Part shown: positions 6,620 to 32,361 of the stretch, piece after piece | How positions within the stretch are numbered: the first letter of the stretch is position 1 | Layout of the letters: each line of letters opens with the position of its first letter | Sequence record: ON528732 | Direction: 5' to 3' (one strand) | Source of the DNA: Shigella phage ESh22 | DNA: 64,000 nt | The notes under the pieces: generated by a model | The model's database searches: none | What the model was told of the DNA's origin: nothing | Seen by the model: only the letters and a program-made list of their open reading frames with translations | Position numbers and translations under genes: made by a program

Positions 6620-6649
6620 ACTATATTCTTTTATAGATACCTCTGTCAA
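6620..6649 (-). promoter_or_regulatory. sigma70-like promoter candidate upstream of rIIA (-35 TTGACA, -10 TATAGT)
   Basis: Minus-strand reading TTGACA-N18-TATAGT about 35 nt upstream of the rIIA ATG. Confidence 0.35.
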
Positions 6650-6650
6650 G

Positions 6651-6830
6651 TTACTTTTTAAATTTCTTTCCAGTTCCGTTACAGTAAGGGCAACAATGCC
6701 CAATACCAGCTATTCCAGAACCTTCACACTCATTACATGGTTCAGTCTCTGCAAAGTACTTGCAAAGCAATACTGCAATAGCAACAATACAACCAAGTGA
6801 TAAGATAATCTCTAACCAATAACCTTGCAT
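6651..6830 (-). CDS. small membrane-anchored protein with two CxxCxGxG (DnaJ-type zinc-finger) motifs, 59 aa
   Basis: Hand-translated, absent from the ORF track (<60 aa): MQGYWLEIILSLGCIVAIAVLLCKYFAETEPCNECEGSGIAGIGHCCPYCNGTGKKFKK; hydrophobic N-terminus, then CNECEGSG and CPYCNGTG. Confidence 0.4.
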   Translation of the reverse strand: MQGYWLEIILSLGCIVAIAVLLCKYFAETEPCNECEGSGIAGIGHCCPYCNGTGKKFKK

Positions 6831-7147
6831 ACATTCTCTCCTACAGTTTTGAACAGGATAAAGCTTCTGTCATGAACGATGCTTGAAGAGACTGCAAAAT
6901 TATCTTCAAGGATTCTTTTGTTCGGATTATAGAAGTGTTCACAGAACAGGTCAAGGGCTTCTTGGTGATTTTGTGGAAGACCTTTGATGTAAACCTTCAA
7001 AGTAATCGTTGTATGAATCTCAGAAGCAAGTTGAGTCTGAGCTTCCTGCATAATCTTGTTAACAAACTTATAACCATCTTCAGTACATTTGATGTTTTCC
7101 CAACGTTCTTCTAAGATAAGGTTGATATTCATCTGCTTAATTTTCAT
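6812..7147 (-). CDS. hypothetical protein (111 aa)
   Basis: ORF track; preceded by a terminator-RBS block. Confidence 0.5.
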   Translation of the reverse strand: MKIKQMNINLILEERWENIKCTEDGYKFVNKIMQEAQTQLASEIHTTITLKVYIKGLPQNHQEALDLFCEHFYNPNKRILEDNFAVSSSIVHDRSFILFKTVGENVCKVIG

Positions 7148-7164
7148 AGCATTCTCCAGAAATT

Positions 7165-7187
7165 AAAAAGGCTCCCGTAGGAGCCTC
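7165..7187 (-). terminator. intrinsic terminator (GGCTCC-UACG-GGAGCC + U5); element about 45 nt long, near-identical to the one at 1205-1229
   Basis: Hairpin + U-tract on minus strand after the NAMPT-like gene; flanks (TATTATAAG ... AATTTCTGGAGAA-ATG) conserved with the 1205 copy. Confidence 0.6.
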
Positions 7188-7200
7188 TTATAATACTCAG

Positions 7201-9027
7201 TTAGAGTTGTTTGTCAATGTTATTTCGAACATCACGAAGGTTTACATAACCATATGGTTGAGAGTTGCTAAACACCAACTTCAAAGCACATTCTGGATTA
7301 TCCAGTACACCTTCAAACTCTGCAAAGCCAAAGCCGTCTACAGCTTCCAGTTTATCACCGTCACACATAGGAACTACACCACCAAAAGCAGACTTCTTAA
7401 GACCACTGTCAGTTTTAGGGTCTTTTGCCAGCATGATTTCTTCACCGTCCATCTGAGCAAGAGTAGCCTTGACAGCAAATGCAAAGGTATCACGAGTCAG
7501 GTACTGGTAAGTGTATGAACCAACACCAAAGACCACGTTAGAGCTTGCAAAACCTTTGTCAGCAAGACGACCAAGAATCTCATTAGCTCGCTCAAGGGTG
7601 ATAGAATCACCATAGATTAAACCGATGTGCTCATCCAGTACTTTGTAACCTTTACTGTTCACACGACCACCAAAGATGTTGTAGAGAGTTGGGATAGCCC
7701 CATCAATCTCTGCTGTCAGCATACGCTTAACAACAATATTTCCGGTCTTATTAAAATCTTTCAAGTTAACTGTTTCAGCAGTTTCAAAATCTTCTTTATC
7801 AACAACTAACTCATAACCTTCAGAGATAAGCCATGCAGCAAACCCATAACCCATATCCTGCAACTCACAATACTGAATAAGATTCAGGAGTTTATCATTG
7901 TTCGGTGCAATTTCTTTCATATGTTTGTAGAACATACTCTTGGCATTTTCCCACTCAACAGCACGATAACCAGCAACAATGTGAATGGGGTCTCCAGAGT
8001 CTGGACGTATTACCAGTTTACCTTCACGCTTCAGGATAACTTCACGGAGTTCTGGGAGAATCTCTGTAACAGTACGCCAGAAGTTGTAAGTATCTGAAAC
8101 AACACTTGCAATACCAGTTGGATATACGTCTACCAGTAAATGCTCAAAGGTTTTAACCTCACCACGCCAACGTTTTGCATCCAGCAAGCTATCAGACTGC
8201 ATGATGTACTGTGAATGAATATCTTCCTCTGACAAGTCTTTCATATTCCATGAAATGTTTGCGCACATCACAGAGTGTTCAGTAGCTGGTACAGAGTTGC
8301 CGATATCACTTACTTCCATAAACTGACCATAAGCACGTTTAGCAGTGTAGACAGCAGGGAAGCTGTCAGTACCTTTAAAGCTTGTCAGGTGACCTACAGC
8401 GTTAAAAGCATCATCTGTAAAGCCTGACATACCACGCATTGCAAAATCATGACACTGCCAAGGTAAATGGAAGTCATTATCACAGGTTACATCAGCCCAT
8501 TGCTTACAGATGCGTTTGTAGTGTAATGCAATAGTGGCAATCGTAGAAGCTTTCCAAATTTCAGCAGAGAAAGCATCTTCCAGATATCCAGCTACCCAAT
8601 GGAAGCCCTCTACAGTATTCTTGAAGATAATCATTGGAACACGCATTGGAACCACTGTACCCTCTTCTACAGAGTAGACTTCGACTGGCAGATAGCCTAA
8701 ATCGTGAAGTTCTTCCCAATGCTCACGACCAATCGCATCTGCACCGAGAACACCGTTCATGATTTCTAAGATTTCGTCAACAACTTCTTTCTTATCTCGT
8801 TCAAAGAAGGTAGCATTCCAGTGGTCTACTAAGTAATCTTTAACGAAACGTTGAATACCAAAAGCAACTACACCGTCAATATCAAGTGGAGTGTTAAACC
8901 ACTTATCACCACGAGGTGTAAGATTTAGCATCAGATACTGTGTAGCACTTGGGTACTGGTAGATATGGCCAGCTTTGTAAGCATCCGCATTAAGACCTGC
9001 TGGTACTGCATAAACTGATTTAGACAT
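7201..9027 (-). CDS. nicotinamide phosphoribosyltransferase (NAMPT/NadV)-family protein; possibly a nicotinamide ADP-ribose transferase
   Basis: ORF 7201..9069, start trimmed to the ATG at 9027 (MSKSVYAVPAGLNADAYKAGH...) preceded by a GAGAGAGA RBS; about 609 aa, longer than typical NAMPT; family assigned from N-terminal region and overall pattern recalled for NadV/PncB-like proteins. Confidence 0.7.
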   Translation of the reverse strand: MSKSVYAVPAGLNADAYKAGHIYQYPSATQYLMLNLTPRGDKWFNTPLDIDGVVAFGIQRFVKDYLVDHWNATFFERDKKEVVDEILEIMNGVLGADAIGREHWEELHDLGYLPVEVYSVEEGTVVPMRVPMIIFKNTVEGFHWVAGYLEDAFSAEIWKASTIATIALHYKRICKQWADVTCDNDFHLPWQCHDFAMRGMSGFTDDAFNAVGHLTSFKGTDSFPAVYTAKRAYGQFMEVSDIGNSVPATEHSVMCANISWNMKDLSEEDIHSQYIMQSDSLLDAKRWRGEVKTFEHLLVDVYPTGIASVVSDTYNFWRTVTEILPELREVILKREGKLVIRPDSGDPIHIVAGYRAVEWENAKSMFYKHMKEIAPNNDKLLNLIQYCELQDMGYGFAAWLISEGYELVVDKEDFETAETVNLKDFNKTGNIVVKRMLTAEIDGAIPTLYNIFGGRVNSKGYKVLDEHIGLIYGDSITLERANEILGRLADKGFASSNVVFGVGSYTYQYLTRDTFAFAVKATLAQMDGEEIMLAKDPKTDSGLKKSAFGGVVPMCDGDKLEAVDGFGFAEFEGVLDNPECALKLVFSNSQPYGYVNLRDVRNNIDKQL

Positions 9028-9042
9028 AATTTTATCTCTCTC

Positions 9043-9070
9043 AATAGTGGGGCTTTTCAGCCCCTTCAAA
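9043..9070 (-). promoter_or_regulatory. GGGGCUGAAAAGCCCC hairpin element (identical to the core at 4190-4205), no U-tract
   Basis: Exact 16-nt repeat of the hairpin in the rIIB promoter-like element; sits between the Prs-like gene stop and the NAMPT-like gene start. Confidence 0.4.
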
Positions 9071-9075
9071 GTTTA

Positions 9076-9957
9076 TTACTCAATGTTTGCTACAGTTACT
9101 TGTGAGAACTGATTCAGACCACGGTCTTCAGCATCCCCTAGCGAGTTTGTAGTGTAGATATGGTCAATGCCATTGTCAAGAAGATTTTCAACACCTTTTG
9201 AGAAAATCCCATGAGTTACATAAAGTTCTACACGGCTTGCACCAGCTTCACGAAGATGTTTTGCAGCTTCTACAAAGGTACGACCACCATCACAGATATC
9301 ATCGAGAATCATGACAGCTTTACCAGTTAAGTCTACATCATCAAGGATTCGCATACCAGTGATTTCACCAGTTTTCAGATTACGAATCTTAGCCATTGTG
9401 ATATATGGCTTATCAACCTCTTTAGCAGCCTCTTCAGTCTTCTTGGCTGCACCTGCATCTGGAGCCACTAAGAAATCAATACGTGGGTCACTTGCAAAGT
9501 GTACTGCTGCTTCTTTCTGGGGCAGGTTATGGAAGCACTTAAACAAGTTCTCTGCTACGTTGCTGTGAGTATCTAAAGCACATACTGCATCAAACTCCAT
9601 AGCATTTACCAGATTTGCAAAGACTTTCAATGCTGCTGCATCACCTTTAAACATGTGACGGTCATAACGAGCATTTGGTAAGAAGCCAAATACAGCAGTC
9701 TTCATAGTTGATTTCTGAGGAATTAGTTTGTCAATAGCTTCTTTCGCCAGAGCTAAAGCAAACAGAGTATCTTTGTCGTAACCCTGTACAGTGAGGATTA
9801 CATTCTCAATCTGGGAAGCATTCTGTTCAGCATAGGCTACTAGGTCTTCTGAGAAGTTACCACCAATTTCTCCAGACGGAAACTGGATAATGTTGAACTC
9901 TTCTTGGTGAGCACCTTTTTTACGTGAGTGTAACAGTACACTAATAATAGTTTTCAT
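9076..9957 (-). CDS. ribose-phosphate pyrophosphokinase (Prs)-family protein; PRPP synthetase or ADP-ribose pyrophosphate synthetase-like
   Basis: 293 aa; 'FPSGE', 'FGFLPNARYDR', 'LDTHS' and the PRPP-binding loop 'VMILDDICDGGRTF' follow the Prs pattern; immediately upstream of the NAMPT-like gene. Confidence 0.75.
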   Translation of the reverse strand: MKTIISVLLHSRKKGAHQEEFNIIQFPSGEIGGNFSEDLVAYAEQNASQIENVILTVQGYDKDTLFALALAKEAIDKLIPQKSTMKTAVFGFLPNARYDRHMFKGDAAALKVFANLVNAMEFDAVCALDTHSNVAENLFKCFHNLPQKEAAVHFASDPRIDFLVAPDAGAAKKTEEAAKEVDKPYITMAKIRNLKTGEITGMRILDDVDLTGKAVMILDDICDGGRTFVEAAKHLREAGASRVELYVTHGIFSKGVENLLDNGIDHIYTTNSLGDAEDRGLNQFSQVTVANIE

Positions 9958-9969
9958 ATTTAATATCTC

Positions 9970-10263
9970 TCAATCAAAAGTTACAAAGGTTACAGCCATA
10001 GCTGTTTTGCATTTCTTTGGGTCTACAGTATGATAAATCACTAAACAGTTACCTGTACCGTCTGGAACTGGTTTTGTCCAAGTGCGTTCAATGTTTGGCT
10101 CTCCAAACTCTTTGTAGTAGCCATTAGATTGATGGTCTACCATCTCAAGTGCAAGGGCATCTGGAACGTGACCACGTATCATGTACATTTCACAACCGTT
10201 ACCACCTTCACTAATAAGTTCTTTGATTTCCCATTGTTCTCTAGCCATTATAAGTCGCCTCAT
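9970..10263 (-). CDS. hypothetical protein (97 aa)
   Basis: ORF track; same strand and operon context. Confidence 0.45.
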   Translation of the reverse strand: MRRLIMAREQWEIKELISEGGNGCEMYMIRGHVPDALALEMVDHQSNGYYKEFGEPNIERTWTKPVPDGTGNCLVIYHTVDPKKCKTAMAVTFVTFD

Positions 10264-10756
10264 AAACAGTCTCGAACTTCAACAAGAGAGATATTGCCAG
10301 AACTGCATATTCCTTGTCAAGCATTGGTGGCATATTATTTTTAATATATTCTTTTTGTTCTGCATAGGTCATCTTAGGGGCTTCTAGAAGCTTCTCTCCT
10401 TGCTTCTGGTTATCAAGTTGAGTCTGGATAAACCAGTTAGAGCAATGGTGCTCCCCACCCTTTGTAACGGGCTTATGGTGGCCTAATGTGAAAGATTGCT
10501 TACCAGAGTAACGGCAAAGCTTGTTAAGAGTAGCTATAGTGTTCTTTACAACACAGTACTCATAGAGGTTGTCAATAGTGTAGTGAGGGTAATATGCAAA
10601 GAGGGAACTATCACGGTACTTCCCACGATTCCAAAGAACCATGTGATTAGAGTTTGAAGGGTCATATTGGTGAGACTCAATGAACTCTTGACGCTCATCA
10701 AAATCAAGACGTAAAACAGACATTGCAGCAGCACGTTTAAGGTTTGCGTAGTACAT
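10241..10756 (-). CDS. hypothetical protein (171 aa), His-rich patches (GHHKP, GEHHCS)
   Basis: ORF track; no confident motif. Confidence 0.5.
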   Translation of the reverse strand: MYYANLKRAAAMSVLRLDFDERQEFIESHQYDPSNSNHMVLWNRGKYRDSSLFAYYPHYTIDNLYEYCVVKNTIATLNKLCRYSGKQSFTLGHHKPVTKGGEHHCSNWFIQTQLDNQKQGEKLLEAPKMTYAEQKEYIKNNMPPMLDKEYAVLAISLLLKFETVYEATYNG

Positions 10757-17191: not shown

Positions 17192-19426
17192 CTAAACACC
17201 ACAACCTTCACAGTAAGTATCTTGTAGTGCTGACTTACCAACACCAATACGACTGTTAAGGTAATACATGGTTTTCATACCAACTGAGTTAGCATAAATC
17301 ATGTACTTCAGAGCTTGCTCTAATGATACCTTCTTAGACTTCGAGTAGTCAACATAGAAATCTGAAGAGATAGCTTGACCAGTGAATTTTTGAACAATTG
17401 CATAGCAATCAATCATATCAAATGTGTCAATATCCCAAGCAATTTCATAGACATACTTCAACTCTTCGTAGTCTGGTACGATAAACAGTACGTTACCAGT
17501 TGCAGACTTTTTAGTTAAAATAAAGTCACGGATTGGGTACAAGCCATTTGTCGTATTAGTTGCTAGTGAAGAACTCTCGTTAGGCATGTAAGCTTCTAAT
17601 ACAGAGTTTCGGATTCCACCATTTTCTTTGATACGTTGTGCTAAGTCATCCCAATCATATCTTAGTTTTGCATCATGTTTTTCATCAATCTTCTTGTTAG
17701 CTGTCTTAGTTGGAACCCAACCATCAGGGTACTTAGTAAACTTCATGTACTCAGGTACACCACGCTCTTTAGACAGTCTCAGTGAAGCCTCATGCAGATA
17801 GAATGAGTGCATCTCTGCAAGTTCATGTAGCTTCGTTTTACCAGCCCTTGAAGAGTAGTTCACGTAGTTCTTTGCAAGGTAATGAGCCACATTTGTAAGG
17901 CCAATCCCAACAGAGCGACGTTTCTGTACATGGTTACACATCGACGGATACGGGTAATCCATAAGGTCAATAACGGAGTCAACCATTGCAAGAGCATAAT
18001 AAGCAACGTCAGCGTATTCATCTTCTGAAATTCTCCCTGCAACCAAACTAGCTAGGAAGCAAAGAGCTACTTCACCATCTTCTTTAGCAGCATTGTAGCT
18101 GTAAAGGTCTGTCTCTTTCTCAAATCCATAAACTGGCAATATAATTTCCATGCACAGGTTAGACATTTTCAAAGGTTCTTTGAACGGCGTATGTGTGTTT
18201 GCGTTGTTCGTAAAGAACGGATAAACACGACCAGTTGCATAACGTTGCTGGATAAACAACTTAGCAATCTCACGAGCTTTTACTCGTTTATGTTTAACAC
18301 CAGTGTGAACCGCATGTCCAACAGCCATTGCAAACTCATCTGCACTTGCTGTATAGAACATATCATACAATTTTGGAGCGTCCTTGTAAGAGAACAGTAG
18401 CCAATCTGTATCGTACTGCACACATTGCCAGAAGTAATCGTTTGTTCCAAATGAGTAATCCATCTCATTAATACGCTTTGAAGTAACCGTTGTAGGGTGC
18501 TTCAGACGAAGTAAATCTTCAATCTGAGGGTCAAGAGCAGTGTAGAAGTTGTTCGCTGAACCACCTCGACTCTTTTGTTTATTAGCCTCTACAGCAGCAC
18601 GTACAAGCTTATAATAAGGGAGTTTCCCCATATGCTCAATGGTATTCTGACGAATCCCGTCACCAATCGTTCTGGTCTCCATAAGCATACCAATACCAGC
18701 TTGCTTTGTAGTCATATCATAAGCTACCTTTGTAGCAATACCAAGTGATTCAGCGGTATCGTTAGCTTTAATCAAGCAGCATGAAGCATAACCTGACTTA
18801 GTAGCTCTCAAACCATTCAGGTAAGGAGTTGGAGCATTAATTTTCAAGTCTGACAGATAAGTATACAGCTTGATAACATCCTCTAAGCGACGGTGCTTAG
18901 GCTGTCTCTCAAAGGCTTTCATAGCCATTCCCATAAACATAAACTGAGGTGACTCAAAGAGTTGTCCAGTTTTAATGTCACGGATTCCGTACTTGTCACG
19001 GAACTGTTTCAGTACTGCATAACCATATGAGATATCTTTTGAGTGAACGATGAAGCCTTGAAGGTATTCTAACTCTTCTCGTGAGTAATCCATCTTCTCC
19101 CATAAACCTGACTCTTCCATATTCTTAACAAATACGTAAAGATTTGGAACTTTAGTGAATCCACCAAAAGCTTCTTTATAGATAATACCTAACAGAAGTC
19201 GTCCAGCCATGTCAGAGTATTCTTGACTTTGCTTATCAATACAAACGTCAATCATAGCTTGGTGCATCTCTTTAGTGGTGCAACCTTCATAGACACGTTT
19301 CATAGCTTCCATTGTAACTTCTGACCAGATAATACCTCGTTTGTCAGCCCATGAAGCCCACTTATTCAAACGTTCAGGCTCGAATGTTACAACGTTTCCG
19401 TTAGATTTGCGAATAGTTTTAATCAT
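17192..19426 (-). CDS. nrdA: ribonucleotide reductase class Ia large subunit
   Basis: 744 aa; N-terminal ATP-cone-like segment (MIKTIRKSNGNVVTFEPERL), C-terminal Cys pair '...CEGCGV'. Confidence 0.85.
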   Translation of the reverse strand: MIKTIRKSNGNVVTFEPERLNKWASWADKRGIIWSEVTMEAMKRVYEGCTTKEMHQAMIDVCIDKQSQEYSDMAGRLLLGIIYKEAFGGFTKVPNLYVFVKNMEESGLWEKMDYSREELEYLQGFIVHSKDISYGYAVLKQFRDKYGIRDIKTGQLFESPQFMFMGMAMKAFERQPKHRRLEDVIKLYTYLSDLKINAPTPYLNGLRATKSGYASCCLIKANDTAESLGIATKVAYDMTTKQAGIGMLMETRTIGDGIRQNTIEHMGKLPYYKLVRAAVEANKQKSRGGSANNFYTALDPQIEDLLRLKHPTTVTSKRINEMDYSFGTNDYFWQCVQYDTDWLLFSYKDAPKLYDMFYTASADEFAMAVGHAVHTGVKHKRVKAREIAKLFIQQRYATGRVYPFFTNNANTHTPFKEPLKMSNLCMEIILPVYGFEKETDLYSYNAAKEDGEVALCFLASLVAGRISEDEYADVAYYALAMVDSVIDLMDYPYPSMCNHVQKRRSVGIGLTNVAHYLAKNYVNYSSRAGKTKLHELAEMHSFYLHEASLRLSKERGVPEYMKFTKYPDGWVPTKTANKKIDEKHDAKLRYDWDDLAQRIKENGGIRNSVLEAYMPNESSSLATNTTNGLYPIRDFILTKKSATGNVLFIVPDYEELKYVYEIAWDIDTFDMIDCYAIVQKFTGQAISSDFYVDYSKSKKVSLEQALKYMIYANSVGMKTMYYLNSRIGVGKSALQDTYCEGCGV

Positions 19427-19444
19427 TATTTGAATCCTACAGGT

Positions 19445-19470
19445 GAAAAGGGTCTCCGAAGAGACCCCTT
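19445..19470 (-). terminator. terminator-like hairpin (GGGGUCUC-UUCG-GAGACCC + U4) before the nrdA RBS
   Basis: GC-rich hairpin with short U-tract on minus strand, about 18 nt upstream of the nrdA ATG. Confidence 0.45.
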
Positions 19471-19475
19471 AGAGA

Positions 19476-19811
19476 TTAAATGCTAAAAATCTTTTGATTA
19501 TCCCAGAGTTCGTAGAATCTTTGAGATACTTTGGTAATTGAGCCTTTAGACATTGCATTGCAATACCAGCTACCATATTGGTCACTGAAGATTCTTTCAA
19601 GTTTTTCATGGATATTGTCATCAATCCTTGCAATTGAAAAGTTACCACGAACTTTAGAAACAACACGACCAAACTTAATATCACTACGACCTTTGCAATC
19701 TTCTGTATACATTACAAAGTCACCGAAGTGGAGTGGTTCTCCATATTTGTCAACACCTAGTTCTACACCAGATTTAACATCTTCAATAGTCAACTTTTTA
19801 GCTTTAGACAT
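19476..19811 (-). CDS. hypothetical protein (111 aa)
   Basis: ORF track. Confidence 0.45.
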   Translation of the reverse strand: MSKAKKLTIEDVKSGVELGVDKYGEPLHFGDFVMYTEDCKGRSDIKFGRVVSKVRGNFSIARIDDNIHEKLERIFSDQYGSWYCNAMSKGSITKVSQRFYELWDNQKIFSI

Positions 19812-20127
19812 GGTATCTATCCAGATTTCGTTTTAAATAAGTCCACTGCTCATCTGTGCGTTCTACACCAATAAACAGAGGAGCTACAACTACTTGACCA
19901 TAAGTATTTCTGTGCTGACAAATCTCATAAGAGAACTTTTTATCAATGTTAAAGCCATATTTGTACAGGACAGCTTTAAGAACTTGTTCGTTATCCAGAA
20001 GTGTATCTGGAGTTTCACCATATTTCGCTAACAGTGAATCATTCATGAATACTGTCATAGAAATATTATAGTTTGAGAAATGGCTCTCCTGAGCCACCTC
20101 TGCTTTATTAGTGTTCTGTGAATCCAT
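19804..20127 (-). CDS. hypothetical protein (107 aa)
   Basis: ORF track. Confidence 0.45.
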   Translation of the reverse strand: MDSQNTNKAEVAQESHFSNYNISMTVFMNDSLLAKYGETPDTLLDNEQVLKAVLYKYGFNIDKKFSYEICQHRNTYGQVVVAPLFIGVERTDEQWTYLKRNLDRYHV

Positions 20128-20863
20128 TATAACCTACCCCTTTTAACCAATTCTTCAGGTTATTTGCATCATAGTTCAACTTCGGGTATGAGGTCGTATG
20201 GAACTTCTCACCATCGTAGTAAACGATATCTGCAACCCACAAGTCATTATCTCTACAGAAATCTCTATCAGCTTTAGAACTGATTGGAGTAATTTCTGTG
20301 AAGTTATCTACACCAAGGCTTCTCAGACTTCCTAGTAAGCCCTGACAGATAACACATGTGTCAGATACTACCACGAATAACTCTTTAGATTCAACCTCTG
20401 CGATAAACTCTGCAAGCTGAACTTTTGGGAGATTAGACTGCTTCATAATCTTACCATCTGATTTACGTACTACTGCAAACCACTCTTTACCTTCAACCAT
20501 TGACGGGCGTAGATAGCATTCATCACCAGTACGTTTCTCAATGTCAAACATACGTTGTACAGCTTCTTGATAGTTATCTGTATATTTCAGGTTGTTATTC
20601 TGGCAAACAGCTTCCATAGCACCATCGTGGTCATGCTGTGACAAGAATACCAAACCATCTAAAACATACTGCAAATCAGCCTGAGCATCAAGGGTTTCAA
20701 CAGGGTCTTTTGCTTCAACTGCTGACACTAACTCTTTAGCTTCTTCCAACATACAAAGAGATTGACTCTTCAGTGATTCCCAATATTCAGGGCTGTATAG
20801 AACCTTTGGAGTATTACCACAACGAAGATTCCAATTTACTACGGATTCTCTGGAATTAAACAT
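20108..20863 (-). CDS. two-domain protein: MazG-like NTP pyrophosphohydrolase segment + thioredoxin-like CxxC segment (tentative)
   Basis: 251 aa; N-terminal 'LEEAKELVSAVEAKD...ETLDAQADLQYVLDG' resembles the MazG acidic helix pattern; C-terminal 'VVVSDTCVICQGLLGSL' has a CxxC in a thioredoxin-like context. Confidence 0.35.
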   Translation of the reverse strand: MFNSRESVVNWNLRCGNTPKVLYSPEYWESLKSQSLCMLEEAKELVSAVEAKDPVETLDAQADLQYVLDGLVFLSQHDHDGAMEAVCQNNNLKYTDNYQEAVQRMFDIEKRTGDECYLRPSMVEGKEWFAVVRKSDGKIMKQSNLPKVQLAEFIAEVESKELFVVVSDTCVICQGLLGSLRSLGVDNFTEITPISSKADRDFCRDNDLWVADIVYYDGEKFHTTSYPKLNYDANNLKNWLKGVGYNGFTEH

Positions 20864-21072
20864 TAAACCTCCTGAAACAATTCCTGTTTAGACAAAATAT
20901 AATCCAGACGGGCTTTCAGTTCAACACGTTTGTTAATCAGGTGCTGAATTTGAGACTCCAGAGCATCCATCTCTGTTTCAGTGGCTTCTTTAGCCTTTGC
21001 AATAACCGTCTTCAGATTATCCAAGCCAGCTTCGATTTTAGCTTGATGGTCGTGCTTGATAGATTTAAACAT
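20863..21072 (-). CDS. small coiled-coil protein (69 aa)
   Basis: ORF track; heptad-like charged sequence. Confidence 0.4.
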   Translation of the reverse strand: MFKSIKHDHQAKIEAGLDNLKTVIAKAKEATETEMDALESQIQHLINKRVELKARLDYILSKQELFQEV

Positions 21073-21577
21073 GATTTTCTCTCTCGTTAAGCTTCATGAT
21101 TTTGTTAATACGTTTCTCAGCTTCTTCATAAGTTTCTTTTGTAAGGAACTTGATAGCTGCAATATTGGCATTGTAGAAGAGTCTGAGTTTCGAGTCAATC
21201 CTTTTTGTCATAACATCGAACTTATGTTGGAGATTTGCTTCTCCGTAGACTAATCCACCTCGTGTATAATAGGTTTGCACAATGTAGAAGTCAAACTCTT
21301 TCATACCAAAAGCTTCAATATCTTTCTTAATGTACTCAGAAGAAGTCTGGTAAACCATCCAGTCACTCTCTTTGGTGACAACCTTACGTCTGGTCTTTCC
21401 AGCAACCTTCTTCTTAGTGATACTATTGAACTGTTTTTTACCCAAATAGTACTGACCAGTCTTTTTGCAGTAGACTAGATAAACGAAGCCAAAGTACTTT
21501 GCAGGGTCAATTTCACCACATAATGATACCCAATGTCCGTAAGTAGGGCAATTACCAAAACCTTTAATCTTTATCAT
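21065..21577 (-). CDS. GIY-YIG-like homing endonuclease (tentative)
   Basis: 170 aa; 'GFVYLVYCKKTGQYYLGKK' fits the GIY-(10-11)-YIG spacing; adjacent to an HNH endonuclease. Confidence 0.4.
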   Translation of the reverse strand: MIKIKGFGNCPTYGHWVSLCGEIDPAKYFGFVYLVYCKKTGQYYLGKKQFNSITKKKVAGKTRRKVVTKESDWMVYQTSSEYIKKDIEAFGMKEFDFYIVQTYYTRGGLVYGEANLQHKFDVMTKRIDSKLRLFYNANIAAIKFLTKETYEEAEKRINKIMKLNERENHV

Positions 21578-22110
21578 TCATAAGTTTCTCCGTGATTTGC
21601 AAACTCTCTATGGAGTTCTTCTCTTTTCTTTCTAACAACATTTTCAGCCTCAGCTACAGAATCAAACAGTCCGAGGTGATAGCAAACTTTATTATGTTTA
21701 ACCTGCGCAACCCATCTGCATCTTTGCTTGTGGTAATAGACACCCTTCACACCAGACTTGTTGTCTTTCCTCTTAGTTGCGTTGCAGTTATTATCTGACC
21801 TGCTGCACTCTCTTAAATTGTCGAACCAGTTTTCGTGCCTAATACCGTTCTTATGGTCAACTAATTTAGGTAGGTAACCTTTTATGTATAAAAATGCTAA
21901 CCTGTGTGCTGCGTACCTTTTACCAAAAAGTTTTATATAAACATAGCCGCTATGGTGTTTAACTCCAGCTACAGAGCCAGCTTTAGCCTTACCAGTTCTA
22001 TCTACTAACCAAGTAAAGACCCCTGTTTCGGGGTCATAGTGTAGGTATTCTTTAAGAATCTGCTGAGTTAACATTTGGTGTCCACCCATACTTATCAAAA
22101 GTGAAATCAT
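21574..22110 (-). CDS. HNH homing endonuclease with AP2-type DNA-binding domain
   Basis: 178 aa; 'VDHKNGIRHENWFDNLR' HNH motif; 'GVKGVYYHKQRCRWVAQV...GLFDSVAEAE' AP2-like domain; ORF start overlaps the 3' end of the exonuclease gene, so the true start may be an internal ATG. Confidence 0.7.
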   Translation of the reverse strand: MISLLISMGGHQMLTQQILKEYLHYDPETGVFTWLVDRTGKAKAGSVAGVKHHSGYVYIKLFGKRYAAHRLAFLYIKGYLPKLVDHKNGIRHENWFDNLRECSRSDNNCNATKRKDNKSGVKGVYYHKQRCRWVAQVKHNKVCYHLGLFDSVAEAENVVRKKREELHREFANHGETYE

Positions 22111-23098
22111 CTTTCTTGTTTCTTTCCTGATAGGCTAAGAAGAAGTGTTGCTGCATTAACTCTAAAGGTGTTCTGGTAATTGTCTGGCCATCCCATGAAA
22201 CATAAGTATAAGAGTCTTTCTTAGCGTAGAGTTCGTAAATTGCATCAAGACATTCTTTATAAGTGGTTTTACCTTCAAGAGCTTTCATTACTGCAACTTT
22301 ACCAGCACCTTTTAAACCAAAGTAGTTATCTGCATTATCACCAGCGACAGCTTGGTAGCAGAGGAATTTAAATCCCACTCCGACCGCCTTCTTAGCTTTT
22401 GGTGTAGATTTTATTGGACAATCCCAAATCTCACCAACGTTATTATCAGCAATAAAAATCAATGGGTTTTTCTCATAAGTCATATCAATGCAATAAGTAC
22501 CTTCAGCTTGACGAAGGTCTTTGTCAATACTCATGAGGGCAGCTTTTTTACCCATCTTCTCAGCTTTCGCAATAACGATAGAGTCAGCTTCAAATCCATC
22601 AAGAATCAGCTTAAACTCAGGTCGTGACAGAAGATACTCACGACAAGCAACTAGGTGCGTAGGTGTCACCGCTTCTTTTCTGTTACCTTGATATTGGTGT
22701 TCAAGACCTTTGATATCCTTGTGTTTGTGAACACCTTTCTCAGTAAGGTAACCCATCCATTTTCGCTCTTTACCAACGACTTTCAACCACTCCTGAAGAA
22801 CCTGCTGAGTCGCCATAATAGCTTCTTTTTCACTCTTGGCTTCCTTCCAAGTCTGTCTTTCCCATTCATCTTCATCAAAGTCAAGTCCAAGTTCCTCTGT
22901 AAGAACTCTCTGGTCAGCTAACCATTGTGAAGATAACTTAGCACTATCAAAGTCATCAGACTCTTCAGCGGTAAGTTTATTCACATACTTGTACTTTGCT
23001 TTTTCAACTACACAAGCACCCTTGTAAGCAATGCTGTCTGCGTCAATGAAGACGTGTGTAACGCTTTCTGGGAGCTTTGTAAGTGTATACTGATTCAT
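22052..23098 (-). CDS. 5'-3' exonuclease / flap endonuclease (FEN/RNase H-like)
   Basis: 348 aa; N-terminal 'VFIDADSIAYKGA' acidic motif typical of FEN family; in the replication block. Confidence 0.5.
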   Translation of the reverse strand: MNQYTLTKLPESVTHVFIDADSIAYKGACVVEKAKYKYVNKLTAEESDDFDSAKLSSQWLADQRVLTEELGLDFDEDEWERQTWKEAKSEKEAIMATQQVLQEWLKVVGKERKWMGYLTEKGVHKHKDIKGLEHQYQGNRKEAVTPTHLVACREYLLSRPEFKLILDGFEADSIVIAKAEKMGKKAALMSIDKDLRQAEGTYCIDMTYEKNPLIFIADNNVGEIWDCPIKSTPKAKKAVGVGFKFLCYQAVAGDNADNYFGLKGAGKVAVMKALEGKTTYKECLDAIYELYAKKDSYTYVSWDGQTITRTPLELMQQHFFLAYQERNKKDDFTFDKYGWTPNVNSADS

Positions 23099-23111
23099 TG
23101 TACCTCCATAC

Positions 23112-23143
23112 GAAAAAGCCCTATACGTTCTGTACAGGGCTTT
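23112..23143 (-). terminator. intrinsic terminator (AGCCCU-loop-AGGGCU + U5)
   Basis: Hairpin + U-tract on minus strand between the SSB-like gene and the exonuclease gene. Confidence 0.5.
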
Positions 23144-23160
23144 GTAGTAACTACTGAGAA

Positions 23161-24006
23161 TTAATCTTCAGTATCGAAATCATCATCATCATCCGGTGTT
23201 GGTAGGTCGTCATCGTCATCACCACCTTTATCATCATCAGAATCTTTTGCATCTTCTTCAGAGATTTCACCGTTGTCTTCAACACCTGCGAGACCAAGCA
23301 GTGCCAGTTCGTCTTCATCAAGTTCAGTCTCGGTTGCACCACCAGTACCACCAGTGTATGGAACCAGAGTATCAATGATAAACTGCTCCTGAATTGGCTT
23401 AGTCAGAACGTTACCTTCGAAGGTGTAGAAGTGAGTCGAAAGAATCACACTACCAAAAGAACCATTACCGACTGCAATATCTGGACAGACAACATCGTAA
23501 GTCTTGTCATCGTCATGCTTGTCAGATTTTGCTGCCTTAATTTTCTTCATAGGTTGCTTAACCGCAACACGTTTACCGTTCAGTTCTTCAACCAGCATCA
23601 CAGGAAAACTCTGTTTTGCTGACCATACAGCACCATCTTTGTAAGCTGCTGAACGGCTAACCTTCAGGATGTAATAAGTGTCAGCTTCGAATGGAGGCTC
23701 ACAACCAAACTTCTCTTCAAAGTCATCTGCATCAACAGTCTCTGTAGTGACCTTATCCCAACCATCTGGATTTTTTTTAGACTTGGTGAACTCTTTAAAG
23801 AGCTTGTTACCGTCTTTTGCCAGAATTGAAACGCTGTAATTACAGTCTTTGCCTGGGAAATGTTTGTCTACAGACTTGCCCTTCTGAGGGCGTGGAATAG
23901 TATTCAGGTAGTAGAACCAAACATCTTTCAGCAGGTAACGATAAGTTTCAAGTTCTTTACCGTTGTATTTTTCTACCGGAGATTTCATTTTAACAACTTT
24001 AGACAT
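23161..24006 (-). CDS. candidate single-stranded DNA-binding protein with poly-acidic C-terminal tail
   Basis: 281 aa; C-terminus '...DDDKGGDDDDDLPTPDDDDDFDTED' resembles the acidic tails of T7 gp2.5/T4 gp32-type SSBs; in the replication block. Confidence 0.35.
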   Translation of the reverse strand: MSKVVKMKSPVEKYNGKELETYRYLLKDVWFYYLNTIPRPQKGKSVDKHFPGKDCNYSVSILAKDGNKLFKEFTKSKKNPDGWDKVTTETVDADDFEEKFGCEPPFEADTYYILKVSRSAAYKDGAVWSAKQSFPVMLVEELNGKRVAVKQPMKKIKAAKSDKHDDDKTYDVVCPDIAVGNGSFGSVILSTHFYTFEGNVLTKPIQEQFIIDTLVPYTGGTGGATETELDEDELALLGLAGVEDNGEISEEDAKDSDDDKGGDDDDDLPTPDDDDDFDTED

Positions 24007-24095
24007 TTTAATACCTCTTTCTCAAATTAACTATCAATTCAAATCTTATTGGGAGTACAATCTTACATGCTTCATACCCCCATGTCAAACATTTT

Positions 24096-24233
24096 AAGCA
24101 GCTTTCTTGGCAGCTTTACGAGCAGTCTTACCAGTGCGAACTCGCTTCGTTTCGTAATGTTCAGCAGACTTACCAGCAGTTGCTTTCAGGGAATCACCAA
24201 ATACTGCTTCAAATGCTTTAGAGTGTTTCATTT
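24096..24233 (-). CDS. small basic protein (45 aa)
   Basis: Hand-translated MKHSKAFEAVFGDSLKATAGKSAEHYETKRVRTGKTARKAAKKAA; its ATG overlaps the stop of the upstream ORF (ATGA). Confidence 0.3.
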
Positions 24234-24506
24234 TGTGCTCCGATATATTTCATATTCAAATGTTTTTAAAGTCAAGGTAAAAAGATAAATTGTTTCAGCT
24301 TTGTCAATTGACAGTGCAAACAAGTCTTTATCTTCACGGCTTTCATGTTCATAAGTAACATCATGCCCCTTGTTGATTAGTACTTTAGCGAACTCTTCAA
24401 TCTTAGTCAAGCAATCTTTTGCAAATTTTTTAGTGCTATTTTCTGAATAGAAGGGCGTGATGCCCTCCTTCAGATAACTATCAGTCAGTTTCAAACGGGC
24501 AGTCAT
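24228..24506 (-). CDS. hypothetical protein (about 92 aa)
   Basis: Downstream part of ORF-track 24228..24773; only the segment after the primase-helicase stop (24481) is likely coding; candidate ATGs at 24506/24509/24515. Confidence 0.35.
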   Translation of the reverse strand: MTARLKLTDSYLKEGITPFYSENSTKKFAKDCLTKIEEFAKVLINKGHDVTYEHESREDKDLFALSIDKAETIYLFTLTLKTFEYEIYRSTK

Positions 24507-31911: not shown

Positions 31912-32120
31912 GCCACCGTGGAAGAACCCATCTCGCCATGATGCAAGGTGCTTCAAAAGATACTATCAAGAATCGGAAGAAAACTCTTTTTGACAGAATG
32001 AATAGACTCATTGATAATGCGAGCCTACCTAACTCTGAAAAGGTTTTCTTGAAAGGGAATCTGAAGAGTATTGCACAGGAACTTATTGACATTGAATTTT
32101 GGAGAAATCAAAATGAGTAA
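31908..32120 (+). CDS. hypothetical protein (70 aa)
   Basis: ORF track; ATGA start/stop overlap with the upstream gene. Confidence 0.45.
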   Translation: MSHRGRTHLAMMQGASKDTIKNRKKTLFDRMNRLIDNASLPNSEKVFLKGNLKSIAQELIDIEFWRNQNE

Positions 32121-32361
32121 AGAGCAAGAAGCAATAGATATCTTTAAAAATGACGATAAGTCAATAGCTTATATCTCAGAAGCTTGGTGCAGAGGGCTAG
32201 GTTATGACTGGTATCTTTTCCTATGTGCTAAAAAGGATGTTAAACCAGTTGATGAAACCAGATTCAAAGAACTGTATAATATCTGTCAAGAAGGTTATGA
32301 AGAACATTACGAAGGTTCTTTGAATCCTGTAAATTCAAAAGCTTCAGATTTATTTTATTGA
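32113..32361 (+). CDS. hypothetical protein (82 aa)
   Basis: ORF 32071..32361 trimmed to the ATG at 32113 (MSKEQEA) with GGAGAAA RBS. Confidence 0.45.
   Translation: MSKEQEAIDIFKNDDKSIAYISEAWCRGLGYDWYLFLCAKKDVKPVDETRFKELYNICQEGYEEHYEGSLNPVNSKASDLFY

Follow-up and report, generated by a model that had tools for sequence, protein, structure and literature searches.

Two small open reading frames (ORFs) that encode nuclease-like proteins lie side by side among the DNA-metabolism genes of Shigella phage ESh22 (record ON528732), and the question that this locus raises is whether both of them are mobile elements. The 64,000-nucleotide (nt) stretch of ESh22 DNA that was analyzed, referred to here as the window, comes from a Mooglevirus (Ounavirinae, Felix O1-like myovirus). 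A preliminary description of it had located an HNH-AP2 ORF and a GIY-YIG-like ORF at positions 21065 to 22110, between an exonuclease gene and a nucleotide-metabolism block, and had interpreted them as tandem free-standing homing endonuclease genes, an insertion of the kind that can differ between otherwise identical isolates. Both ORFs were found at these coordinates on the minus strand, the HNH motif that had been quoted, VDHKNGIRHENWFDNL, is present in the translation of the HNH ORF, and the placement was borne out, with the exonuclease gene on one side and the MazG-like and NrdA genes on the other. The interpretation was partly supported and appears to be half right: the results point to one mobile gene inserted beside a resident nuclease gene, not to a mobile tandem. 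We consider it probable that the HNH gene is a mobile homing gene and, at the same time, that the GIY-YIG-like gene is a resident partner of the neighboring exonuclease gene.

The presence of an HNH gene and a GIY-YIG gene at this position is already known, the pair being annotated in Felix O1, Moogle, Sf14, Mushroom, and other phages. In Felix O1, whose genome paper noted six HNH genes (PMC3185647), ORF106 is annotated as the HNH gene and ORF107, the GIY-YIG-like gene, is mislabelled "NAD synthetase." As posed, the finding of such a pair matters little, and homing with co-conversion of the flanks is textbook phage biology. What is added here is a nearly isogenic pair of genomes, the window and that of phage ESh21, with a delimited tract between them; the recognition that the GIY-YIG gene should not be counted among the homing genes; and documentation of its pairing with exonuclease genes.

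A mosaic tract around the HNH gene

The ESh21 genome (ON528731) was compared with the window and aligned to it by local blastn in three collinear segments of 99.6%, 95.2%, and 99.5% identity that together cover the 64 kb; overall the two are about 99.5% identical. They differ by just one large indel, the block that contains the HNH gene, and the locus is 494 base pairs (bp) longer in the window. Local blastn together with an alignment of the junctions placed the block without an ESh21 counterpart at 21583 to 22081, a length of approximately 499 bp whose ends are uncertain by about 10 bp. The expectation that the insertion would differ between otherwise identical isolates was thus confirmed for the HNH gene, which is present in the window and absent from the near-identical ESh21. 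The mismatches between the two sequences were also concentrated here: 130 of the 382 fall in 21443 to 21557 and 22085 to 22793, and none at all were found in either 19500 to 21442 or 22794 to 23175. Mismatch density and identity to phage Henu11 define a tract of 1,351 bp (21443 to 22793) set in an ESh21-type backbone. It consists of approximately 135 bp from the 5' end of the GIY-YIG-like gene, the HNH cassette, and approximately 710 bp from the 3' part of the exonuclease gene, and the last 247 or so codons of the exonuclease fall inside it.

The identity of the window to Henu11, which also carries the HNH gene, was 93 to 98% inside the tract and approximately 85% outside of it. When both genomes were compared to Silverhawkium within the tract, ESh21 had 88 to 95% identity, which is its normal level, whereas the window dropped to 76 to 84%. 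Because ESh21 keeps this backbone-like identity to Silverhawkium in the tract and the window jumps to a Henu11-like sequence, the window lineage was the recipient. The window HNH protein has 96% amino acid (aa) identity to Henu11 gp14, and the synonymous divergence (dS) between the window and Henu11 was 0.26 for the HNH gene versus 0.96 to 1.23 for the MazG and GIY-YIG-like genes, which indicates that the HNH gene is a younger component of this genome than the backbone. The 1,351-bp patch is a textbook co-conversion footprint: an ESh21-type lineage gained the HNH gene and its flanks from a Henu11-like donor.

Occupancy and alleles of the HNH site

The HNH site is empty in ESh21, Sf13, Silverhawkium, Bas63, and phiEa104 and occupied in Henu11, Moogle, Felix O1, a wV8-type phage, and EcSzw-2, and presence or absence of the gene is polymorphic at the identical site within one genus. 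HNH DNA was matched in 133 of approximately 300 phage records. In a census of IMG/VR made up of the best 80 matches, 12 of the 32 evaluable Ounavirinae-like loci were occupied by the HNH gene. Three divergent and intact HNH alleles are found at this one site, types A and B of 166 aa and type C of approximately 163 aa; types A and B have approximately 53% aa identity to each other, and each of them occurs in more than one genus. The alleles compared, from the window (type A), Moogle, the wV8-type phage, and one IMG/VR locus, share an identical insertion site, and the Felix O1 allele, which is 89% identical to the window HNH, occupies the same site. Between types A and B, approximately the first 60 and the last 50 nt are 83 to 100% identical, and the middle is 40 to 60% identical and shows saturated divergence. 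This cassette-like structure may reflect competing endonucleases, and it is plausible that the conserved ends behave as flank, with one allele replaced by another through recombination inside them.

The sequence of the adjacent exonuclease was found to vary with the state of the site. In the junction alignment, the exonuclease C terminus reads ...GWTPNVNSADS, followed by the stop, at an occupied site and ...GWEPTMNED, followed by the stop, at an empty site. Over approximately the last 25 exonuclease codons, occupied sites encode QHFFLAYQERNK[KS]D...GWTPNV and empty sites encode QHFWIAYQERNPKD...WEPxMNED; the haplotype reads FFLAYQERNK.. at the former and FWIAYQERNPK... at the latter. In the window and 15 other loci, including that of Bas63, this C-terminal haplotype (22052 to 22150) follows HNH occupancy and not genus. 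The haplotype may mark a polymorphism in the HNH target or in immunity to HNH, or it may merely be a tightly linked, co-converted flank. Since occupancy of the site is sporadic, its alleles are divergent, the tract around it is imported, and the exonuclease haplotype goes with it, the HNH-AP2 gene is best described as a mobile, free-standing homing endonuclease gene with a predicted cleavage activity. Intronless homing with co-conversion of the flanks has been established for the T4 Seg and Mob enzymes (PMC2988022).

The HNH-AP2 protein and its start

The HNH-AP2 gene (21574 to 22074, minus strand; 166 aa, allele type A) lies within a longest ORF that reaches 22110 and would encode 178 aa. Its product matched Pfam HNH_3 with 40.6 bits (cutoff 24.8) and phrog_99, "HNH endonuclease," with an E value of 2.6e-72, and the match to Pfam AP2 was below threshold (27.8 bits; cutoff 33.3). 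An AlphaFold model based on 44 homologues had a predicted local distance difference test score (pLDDT) of 94.1. The C terminus of this model, which consists of three strands and a helix, resembled the plant AP2/ERF structures 7et5, 7wq5, and 1gcc (Foldseek probability, 1.00; root mean square deviation, 1.2 to 3.1 A), so that the model confirms an AP2 fold at the C terminus as a separate, predicted DNA-binding domain. Residues D73, H74, N82, N86, and N98 are invariant in the 44 homologues, and all of them are kept in the window protein. Within allele types, the ratio of nonsynonymous to synonymous substitution rates (dN/dS) was 0.05 to 0.12, with the catalytic residues intact. A phmmer search within the window found no paralogues of either the HNH or the GIY-YIG-like gene.

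The true start of the HNH gene is likely the ATG at 22074 (MLTQQ...), because the orthologues are annotated in this way, the family consensus begins there, and a GGTGGA lies upstream. The overlap of the HNH start with the 3' end of the exonuclease gene, as given in the preliminary description, does exist, and from this ATG to the exonuclease stop at 22052 it therefore measures 23 nt and not 59 nt. The HNH gene is its own ORF between genes and is contained in neither an intron nor an intein; it extends 23 nt over the exonuclease stop and 4 nt over the start of the GIY-YIG-like gene, and its neighbors are intact in genomes with an empty site. It was inserted precisely where the exonuclease stop and the GIY-YIG start had overlapped by 11 nt, with the last few exonuclease codons replaced, and the new junction between the HNH stop and the GIY-YIG start is ATGA. 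With an overlap rebuilt on each side, the operon would therefore stay translationally coupled and the insert would be hard to delete without damage to a neighbor; the operon that carries the insert is probably both tightly packed and translationally coupled.

A hairpin inside the HNH gene

Codons 14 to 19 of the HNH gene form a GC hairpin with a perfect 6-bp stem (22018 to 22035, minus strand). Its sequence, GACCCC-GAAACA-GGGGTC, is followed by TTTACTT and encodes DPETGV. The hairpin is the sole minus-strand terminator-like match in 19300 to 24500 and occurs only once in the window. Every HNH allele at this locus carries it without change, as do several further families of HNH paralogues in Ounavirinae, a set collected by exact match. 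The only CCC codon of the HNH gene (2% of Pro codons genome-wide) and its only GGG codon (7% of Gly codons) are found within it, and given the codon usage of the window, such a codon string had a probability of 1.6e-5. The possibility that any DNA encoding YDPETGVFTW would form the stem was rejected: a perfect stem was present in only 5 of 113 such DNA instances, all 5 of them from Ounavirinae. Elsewhere in the virosphere, DPETGV is specified by 75 different codon strings, none of which forms the stem. These results suggest that the Ounavirinae hairpin is under selection at the nucleotide level, perhaps as an attenuator or a processing site. Scans for promoters and terminators gave the same counts as in shuffled sequence.

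The GIY-YIG-like gene is conserved in all relatives

The GIY-YIG-like gene (21065 to 21577, minus strand; 170 aa; PF19835/phrog_447) matched the Pfam family SegE_GIY-YIG (PF19835) with an E value of 2.7e-26 and 92.6 bits (cutoff 25). Its DNA was found as a single copy in each of 301 records, including those of Ounavirinae from Erwinia, Yersinia, Pectobacterium, and Hafnia, and a search with the protein likewise found a single copy in each of 782 phage records. By tblastn at 60% identity or more, the GIY-YIG-like protein was detected in approximately 296 Ounavirinae records and the exonuclease in approximately 257, plus Erwinia phages. The gene was syntenic in every relative inspected, an empty GIY-YIG-like site was not found among approximately 300 relatives, and all 32 of the evaluable Ounavirinae-like loci in the IMG/VR census had the order exonuclease-(HNH)-GIY. 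The claim of two mobile homing endonuclease genes thus holds for the HNH gene, with its presence or absence at the site and its imported tract, and fails for the GIY-YIG-like gene, which the comparison of relatives showed to be conserved at this position in all of them and syntenic across some 300 records.

Measures of sequence divergence gave no sign of a recent arrival. The dN/dS of the GIY-YIG-like gene was 0.053, compared to 0.051 for the exonuclease gene and 0.128 for MazG, and its aa identity to the Erwinia phage phiEa104 was 60%, compared to 53% for the exonuclease and 34% for MazG. Its dS (0.86 to 2.0) was equal to or deeper than that of the neighboring genes, with no signal shallower than the backbone. 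The catalytic domain takes up residues 23 to 139 of the 170 and is followed by one helix at residues 151 to 169; no NUMOD, helix-turn-helix, or zinc-finger Pfam match that could represent a DNA-binding region was found in the protein. An AF2 (AlphaFold) model had a pLDDT of 87.6, and its best sensible fold match was the catalytic domain of I-TevI, with a weak template modeling (TM) score of 0.61 to 0.65. Sequence and profile searches of the protein against PDB chains gave nothing meaningful. The invariant residues of the family include Y33, Y44, G46, E113, R132, and N136, which would fit an active GIY-YIG center. Because the protein has no specificity domain and the gene has no sporadic distribution, it is not considered to be a free-standing homing endonuclease; on the sequence evidence, it appears to be a vertically inherited, strongly constrained, domain-only nuclease gene and not a mobile element.

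The label "NAD synthetase," which this gene family carries in RefSeq records of Ounavirinae and cyanophages and in phrog_447 of PHROGs, was supported by neither Pfam, NCBIfam, nor the fold. Some relatives annotate it instead as "GIY-YIG homing endonuclease," and others as hypothetical. Hundreds of records probably carry a wrong annotation for the gene.

Pairing with exonuclease genes

The gene upstream of the HNH insert (22052 to 23098, minus strand) encodes a 348-aa 5'-3' exonuclease that is FEN/T7 gp6-like (phrog_107; E value, 8.6e-65). In Ounavirinae with an empty site, its stop overlaps the GIY-YIG start by 8 to 13 nt, and overlaps of 4 to 20 nt between exonuclease and GIY-YIG genes are common in other lineages. 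Upstream of the homologues in unrelated contigs, the immediate neighbor is either a FEN-type exonuclease (phrog_107) or a Cas4-domain PD-(D/E)XK exonuclease (phrog_1990), and MazG/PRA-PH and ribonucleotide reductase genes occur near the pair. An exonuclease gene ended no more than 150 nt upstream of the GIY-YIG gene in 37 of the 44 evaluable non-Ounavirinae loci (31 of the Cas4 type and 6 of the FEN type) and was located within 1 kb of it in 43 of the 44. A literature search for a described pairing of GIY-YIG and Cas4-type exonuclease genes returned nothing relevant. As a tentative proposal, which we hold to be possible, members of PF19835/phrog_447 could be a widespread, unrecognized family of housekeeping endonucleases with obligate exonuclease partners in both myoviruses and podovirus-like phages, and the Ounavirinae HNH genes could exploit the coupled junction between the two genes, by means that would include three competing alleles and a hairpin that tunes expression.

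Neighboring genes and other mismatch clusters

All genes in the region are on the minus strand. The gene order upstream of the exonuclease gene is a primase/helicase gene followed by small ORFs. On the other side of the locus, an ORF for a 69-aa coiled-coil protein lies between the GIY-YIG-like gene and the gene for a MazG-like/PRA-PH pyrophosphatase (20108 to 20863, minus strand), and two small ORFs separate the latter from the NrdA gene (17192 to 19426, minus strand). In Bas63 (MZ501086), nrdD is annotated as split at 6631 to 9517, with a gene for an HNH_3 plus NUMOD1-like endonuclease, bas63_0068, in the gap. This gene is an intron- or intein-type insertion, and the window phage has no such insertion at the exonuclease/GIY locus.

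Two further clusters of differences between the window and ESh21 were observed. One, of approximately 30 mismatches within about 215 bp (10314 to 10529), is inside an ORF of 171 aa (10241 to 10756, minus strand) that is the orthologue of Bas63 gp77, with 80% aa identity. In Bas63, a Felixounavirus, gp77 has been reported as a "GIY-YIG" counter-defense protein against retron Ec67 (PhageMaP preprint, PMC11482910). Pfam did not find a GIY-YIG domain in the 171-aa ORF, and its motif, GHHKPVTKGGEHHCSNW, looks HNH-like. The cluster suggests that recombination or diversification has acted on a second, small patch, here within an antidefense gene. Bas63 gp77 was considered as a counterpart of the exonuclease/GIY-YIG locus and rejected: by locus-tag numbering it is bas63_0077, which corresponds to 10241 to 10756 of the window, and the orthologue of the GIY-YIG-like gene is bas63_0057. 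The other cluster (32106 to 32292) lies inside an ORF of 96 aa (32071 to 32361, plus strand) and consists of approximately 32 mismatches and small indels in less than 200 bp, with identical surroundings.

Proposed mechanism and alternative explanations

The results for the HNH gene can be accommodated by a homing cycle. During a mixed infection, the HNH nuclease, guided by its AP2 domain, would cut or nick the exonuclease/GIY-YIG junction of genomes that lack the HNH gene, and recombinational repair from an HNH-carrying genome would then copy the gene together with flanking DNA into the cut genome. The GIY-YIG-like protein, for its part, would introduce nicks or breaks that are then widened by the exonuclease, and the role of this endonuclease/exonuclease pair would be either the breakdown of host DNA for nucleotide salvage, in supply of the nucleotide-metabolism genes next to it, or the processing of replication or recombination intermediates.

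Several points weigh against this two-part explanation. We infer both the cleavage by the HNH protein and the position of its cut site. The smaller mismatch patches at 10314 to 10529 and 32106 to 32292 have no endonuclease gene nearby, so mosaics are possible by ordinary recombination. The role of the GIY-YIG-like protein as the endonuclease partner of the adjacent exonuclease is deduced from gene order as its sole basis, many of the matches in the IMG/VR census come from related marine phages and are not independent, and homologues from cyanomyophages (T4-like), such as S-TIM4, are not encoded beside an exonuclease gene. The matches of the protein to characterized enzymes are weak, with an E value of only about 0.6 to I-TevI in Foldseek, and an hhalign comparison of its profile with I-TevI and with T4 DenA was not significant. 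Finally, a homing endonuclease gene that was ancient and had become fixed could also appear conserved.

The alternative that survives best, which we nonetheless regard as unlikely, is that the HNH tract came in by ordinary homologous recombination during co-infection and without any cleavage by the HNH protein, which may be inactive or otherwise employed. The short mosaic patches elsewhere between the window and ESh21 would be in keeping with such an origin, but the HNH tract is by far the densest of them and the sole one with a large indel. The HNH catalytic residues are moreover invariant, purifying selection is seen in all alleles, one site has repeatedly been held by three divergent alleles, and the exonuclease haplotype follows the HNH gene across genera, all of which speak against this alternative.

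It is also quite unlikely that both ORFs are homing endonuclease genes, the GIY-YIG one being an old gene that was swept to fixation and is now active in marker exclusion against distant phages. Its catalytic domain does belong to a SegE-type family, and its weaker PHROG matches are to "homing endonuclease" families, in line with how relatives are annotated. This alternative has difficulty with a single-copy gene that shows no empty site in some 300 relatives, a dS as deep as that of the backbone, and a dN/dS of 0.053, and with a protein that has no DNA-binding extension, when T4 SegE has approximately 120 extra residues. That the gene is paired, in distant phages, with exonucleases of two unrelated folds would likewise be unexpected for a selfish gene. 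Highly improbable, and rejected on the grounds of flank divergence and polarity, is a simple deletion of the HNH gene from ESh21 with the window as the ancestral state: only two near-identical genomes were compared and the direction of change was not directly observed, but a deletion would keep the flanks identical, and these differ by 14 to 25% over 135 bp and 710 bp, with those of ESh21 backbone-like relative to Silverhawkium and those of the window Henu11-like.

For a mobile HNH gene beside a resident GIY-YIG-like gene, the window and ESh21 provide a natural, almost isogenic HNH-plus and HNH-minus pair with a cleanly delimited tract. The pair is well suited to tests of homing in the subfamily Ounavirinae, whose members serve in biocontrol and typing.

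Comparison with known systems

The HNH gene most closely parallels T4 MobE and Felix O1 ORF106 (orthologue), which also combine an HNH domain with a separate DNA-binding domain in an ORF of their own among conserved DNA-metabolism genes. They too are sporadic among relatives and have co-converted flanks (PMC2988022, PMC2790892). In the T4 Mob proteins, unlike the HNH protein studied here with its AP2 module, the C-terminal region is not AP2, and the MobE type also differs from the present case of three divergent alleles at one insertion site with conserved 5' and 3' ends. I-HmuI and I-HmuII of the Bacillus phages SPO1 and SP82 are reportedly competing HNH endonucleases at one site, as described by Goodrich-Blair and Shub in 1996. 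These are similar in that divergent HNH alleles are found at a single locus of related phages and are associated with the exclusion of flanking markers; they are also mentioned in PMC2988022. They are intron-encoded, within a DNA polymerase gene, whereas the HNH gene here is free-standing. Competition between HNH allele types A, B, and C may be conjectured. In ICP1 and other lineages, an endonuclease gene is likewise found beside essential replication genes at a block exchanged between similar phages, but those islands exceed 10 kb, and here the exchange spans 1.35 kb around a single gene.

The GIY-YIG-like protein shares its catalytic domain with T4 SegE (hhalign probability, 93.6%; E value, 2e-7; 61 columns). 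SegE, which occurs sporadically among T-even phages, has 205 aa, approximately 120 of them beyond the catalytic domain. The GIY-YIG-like protein, in contrast, has 170 aa, ends in one helix, and carries behind its YIG strand a beta-hairpin insertion of approximately 16 residues; it is fixed in the subfamily. It also differs from I-TevI, which has zinc-finger, NUMOD3, and DNA-binding domains, in being bare.

Endonuclease I (gp3) and exonuclease gp6 of T7 and endonuclease II (DenA) of T4 are nucleases of host-DNA breakdown and DNA processing. Like the locus described here, these systems have a small endonuclease encoded with exonuclease, MazG-like, and ribonucleotide reductase genes in lytic phages. 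DenA is, in addition, a small domain-only GIY-YIG enzyme whose gene lies beside nrdB. It has no detectable sequence relationship to the GIY-YIG-like protein (hhalign probability, 0.7%) and matches PF01541, not PF19835. A claim of direct homology to EndoII was dropped, given that the hhalign comparison to DenA was not significant, and the functional analogy was kept. T7 gp3 has a fold different from that of GIY-YIG, and the corresponding role is assigned here from gene order alone. If the housekeeping proposal is true, PF19835/phrog_447 would be the GIY-YIG counterpart of the endonuclease in the T7 gp3/gp6 system, with partners of either the FEN type or the Cas4 type. The near-universal pairing of the GIY-YIG gene with exonuclease genes of two unrelated folds provides a concrete, testable hypothesis for the function of a conserved gene.

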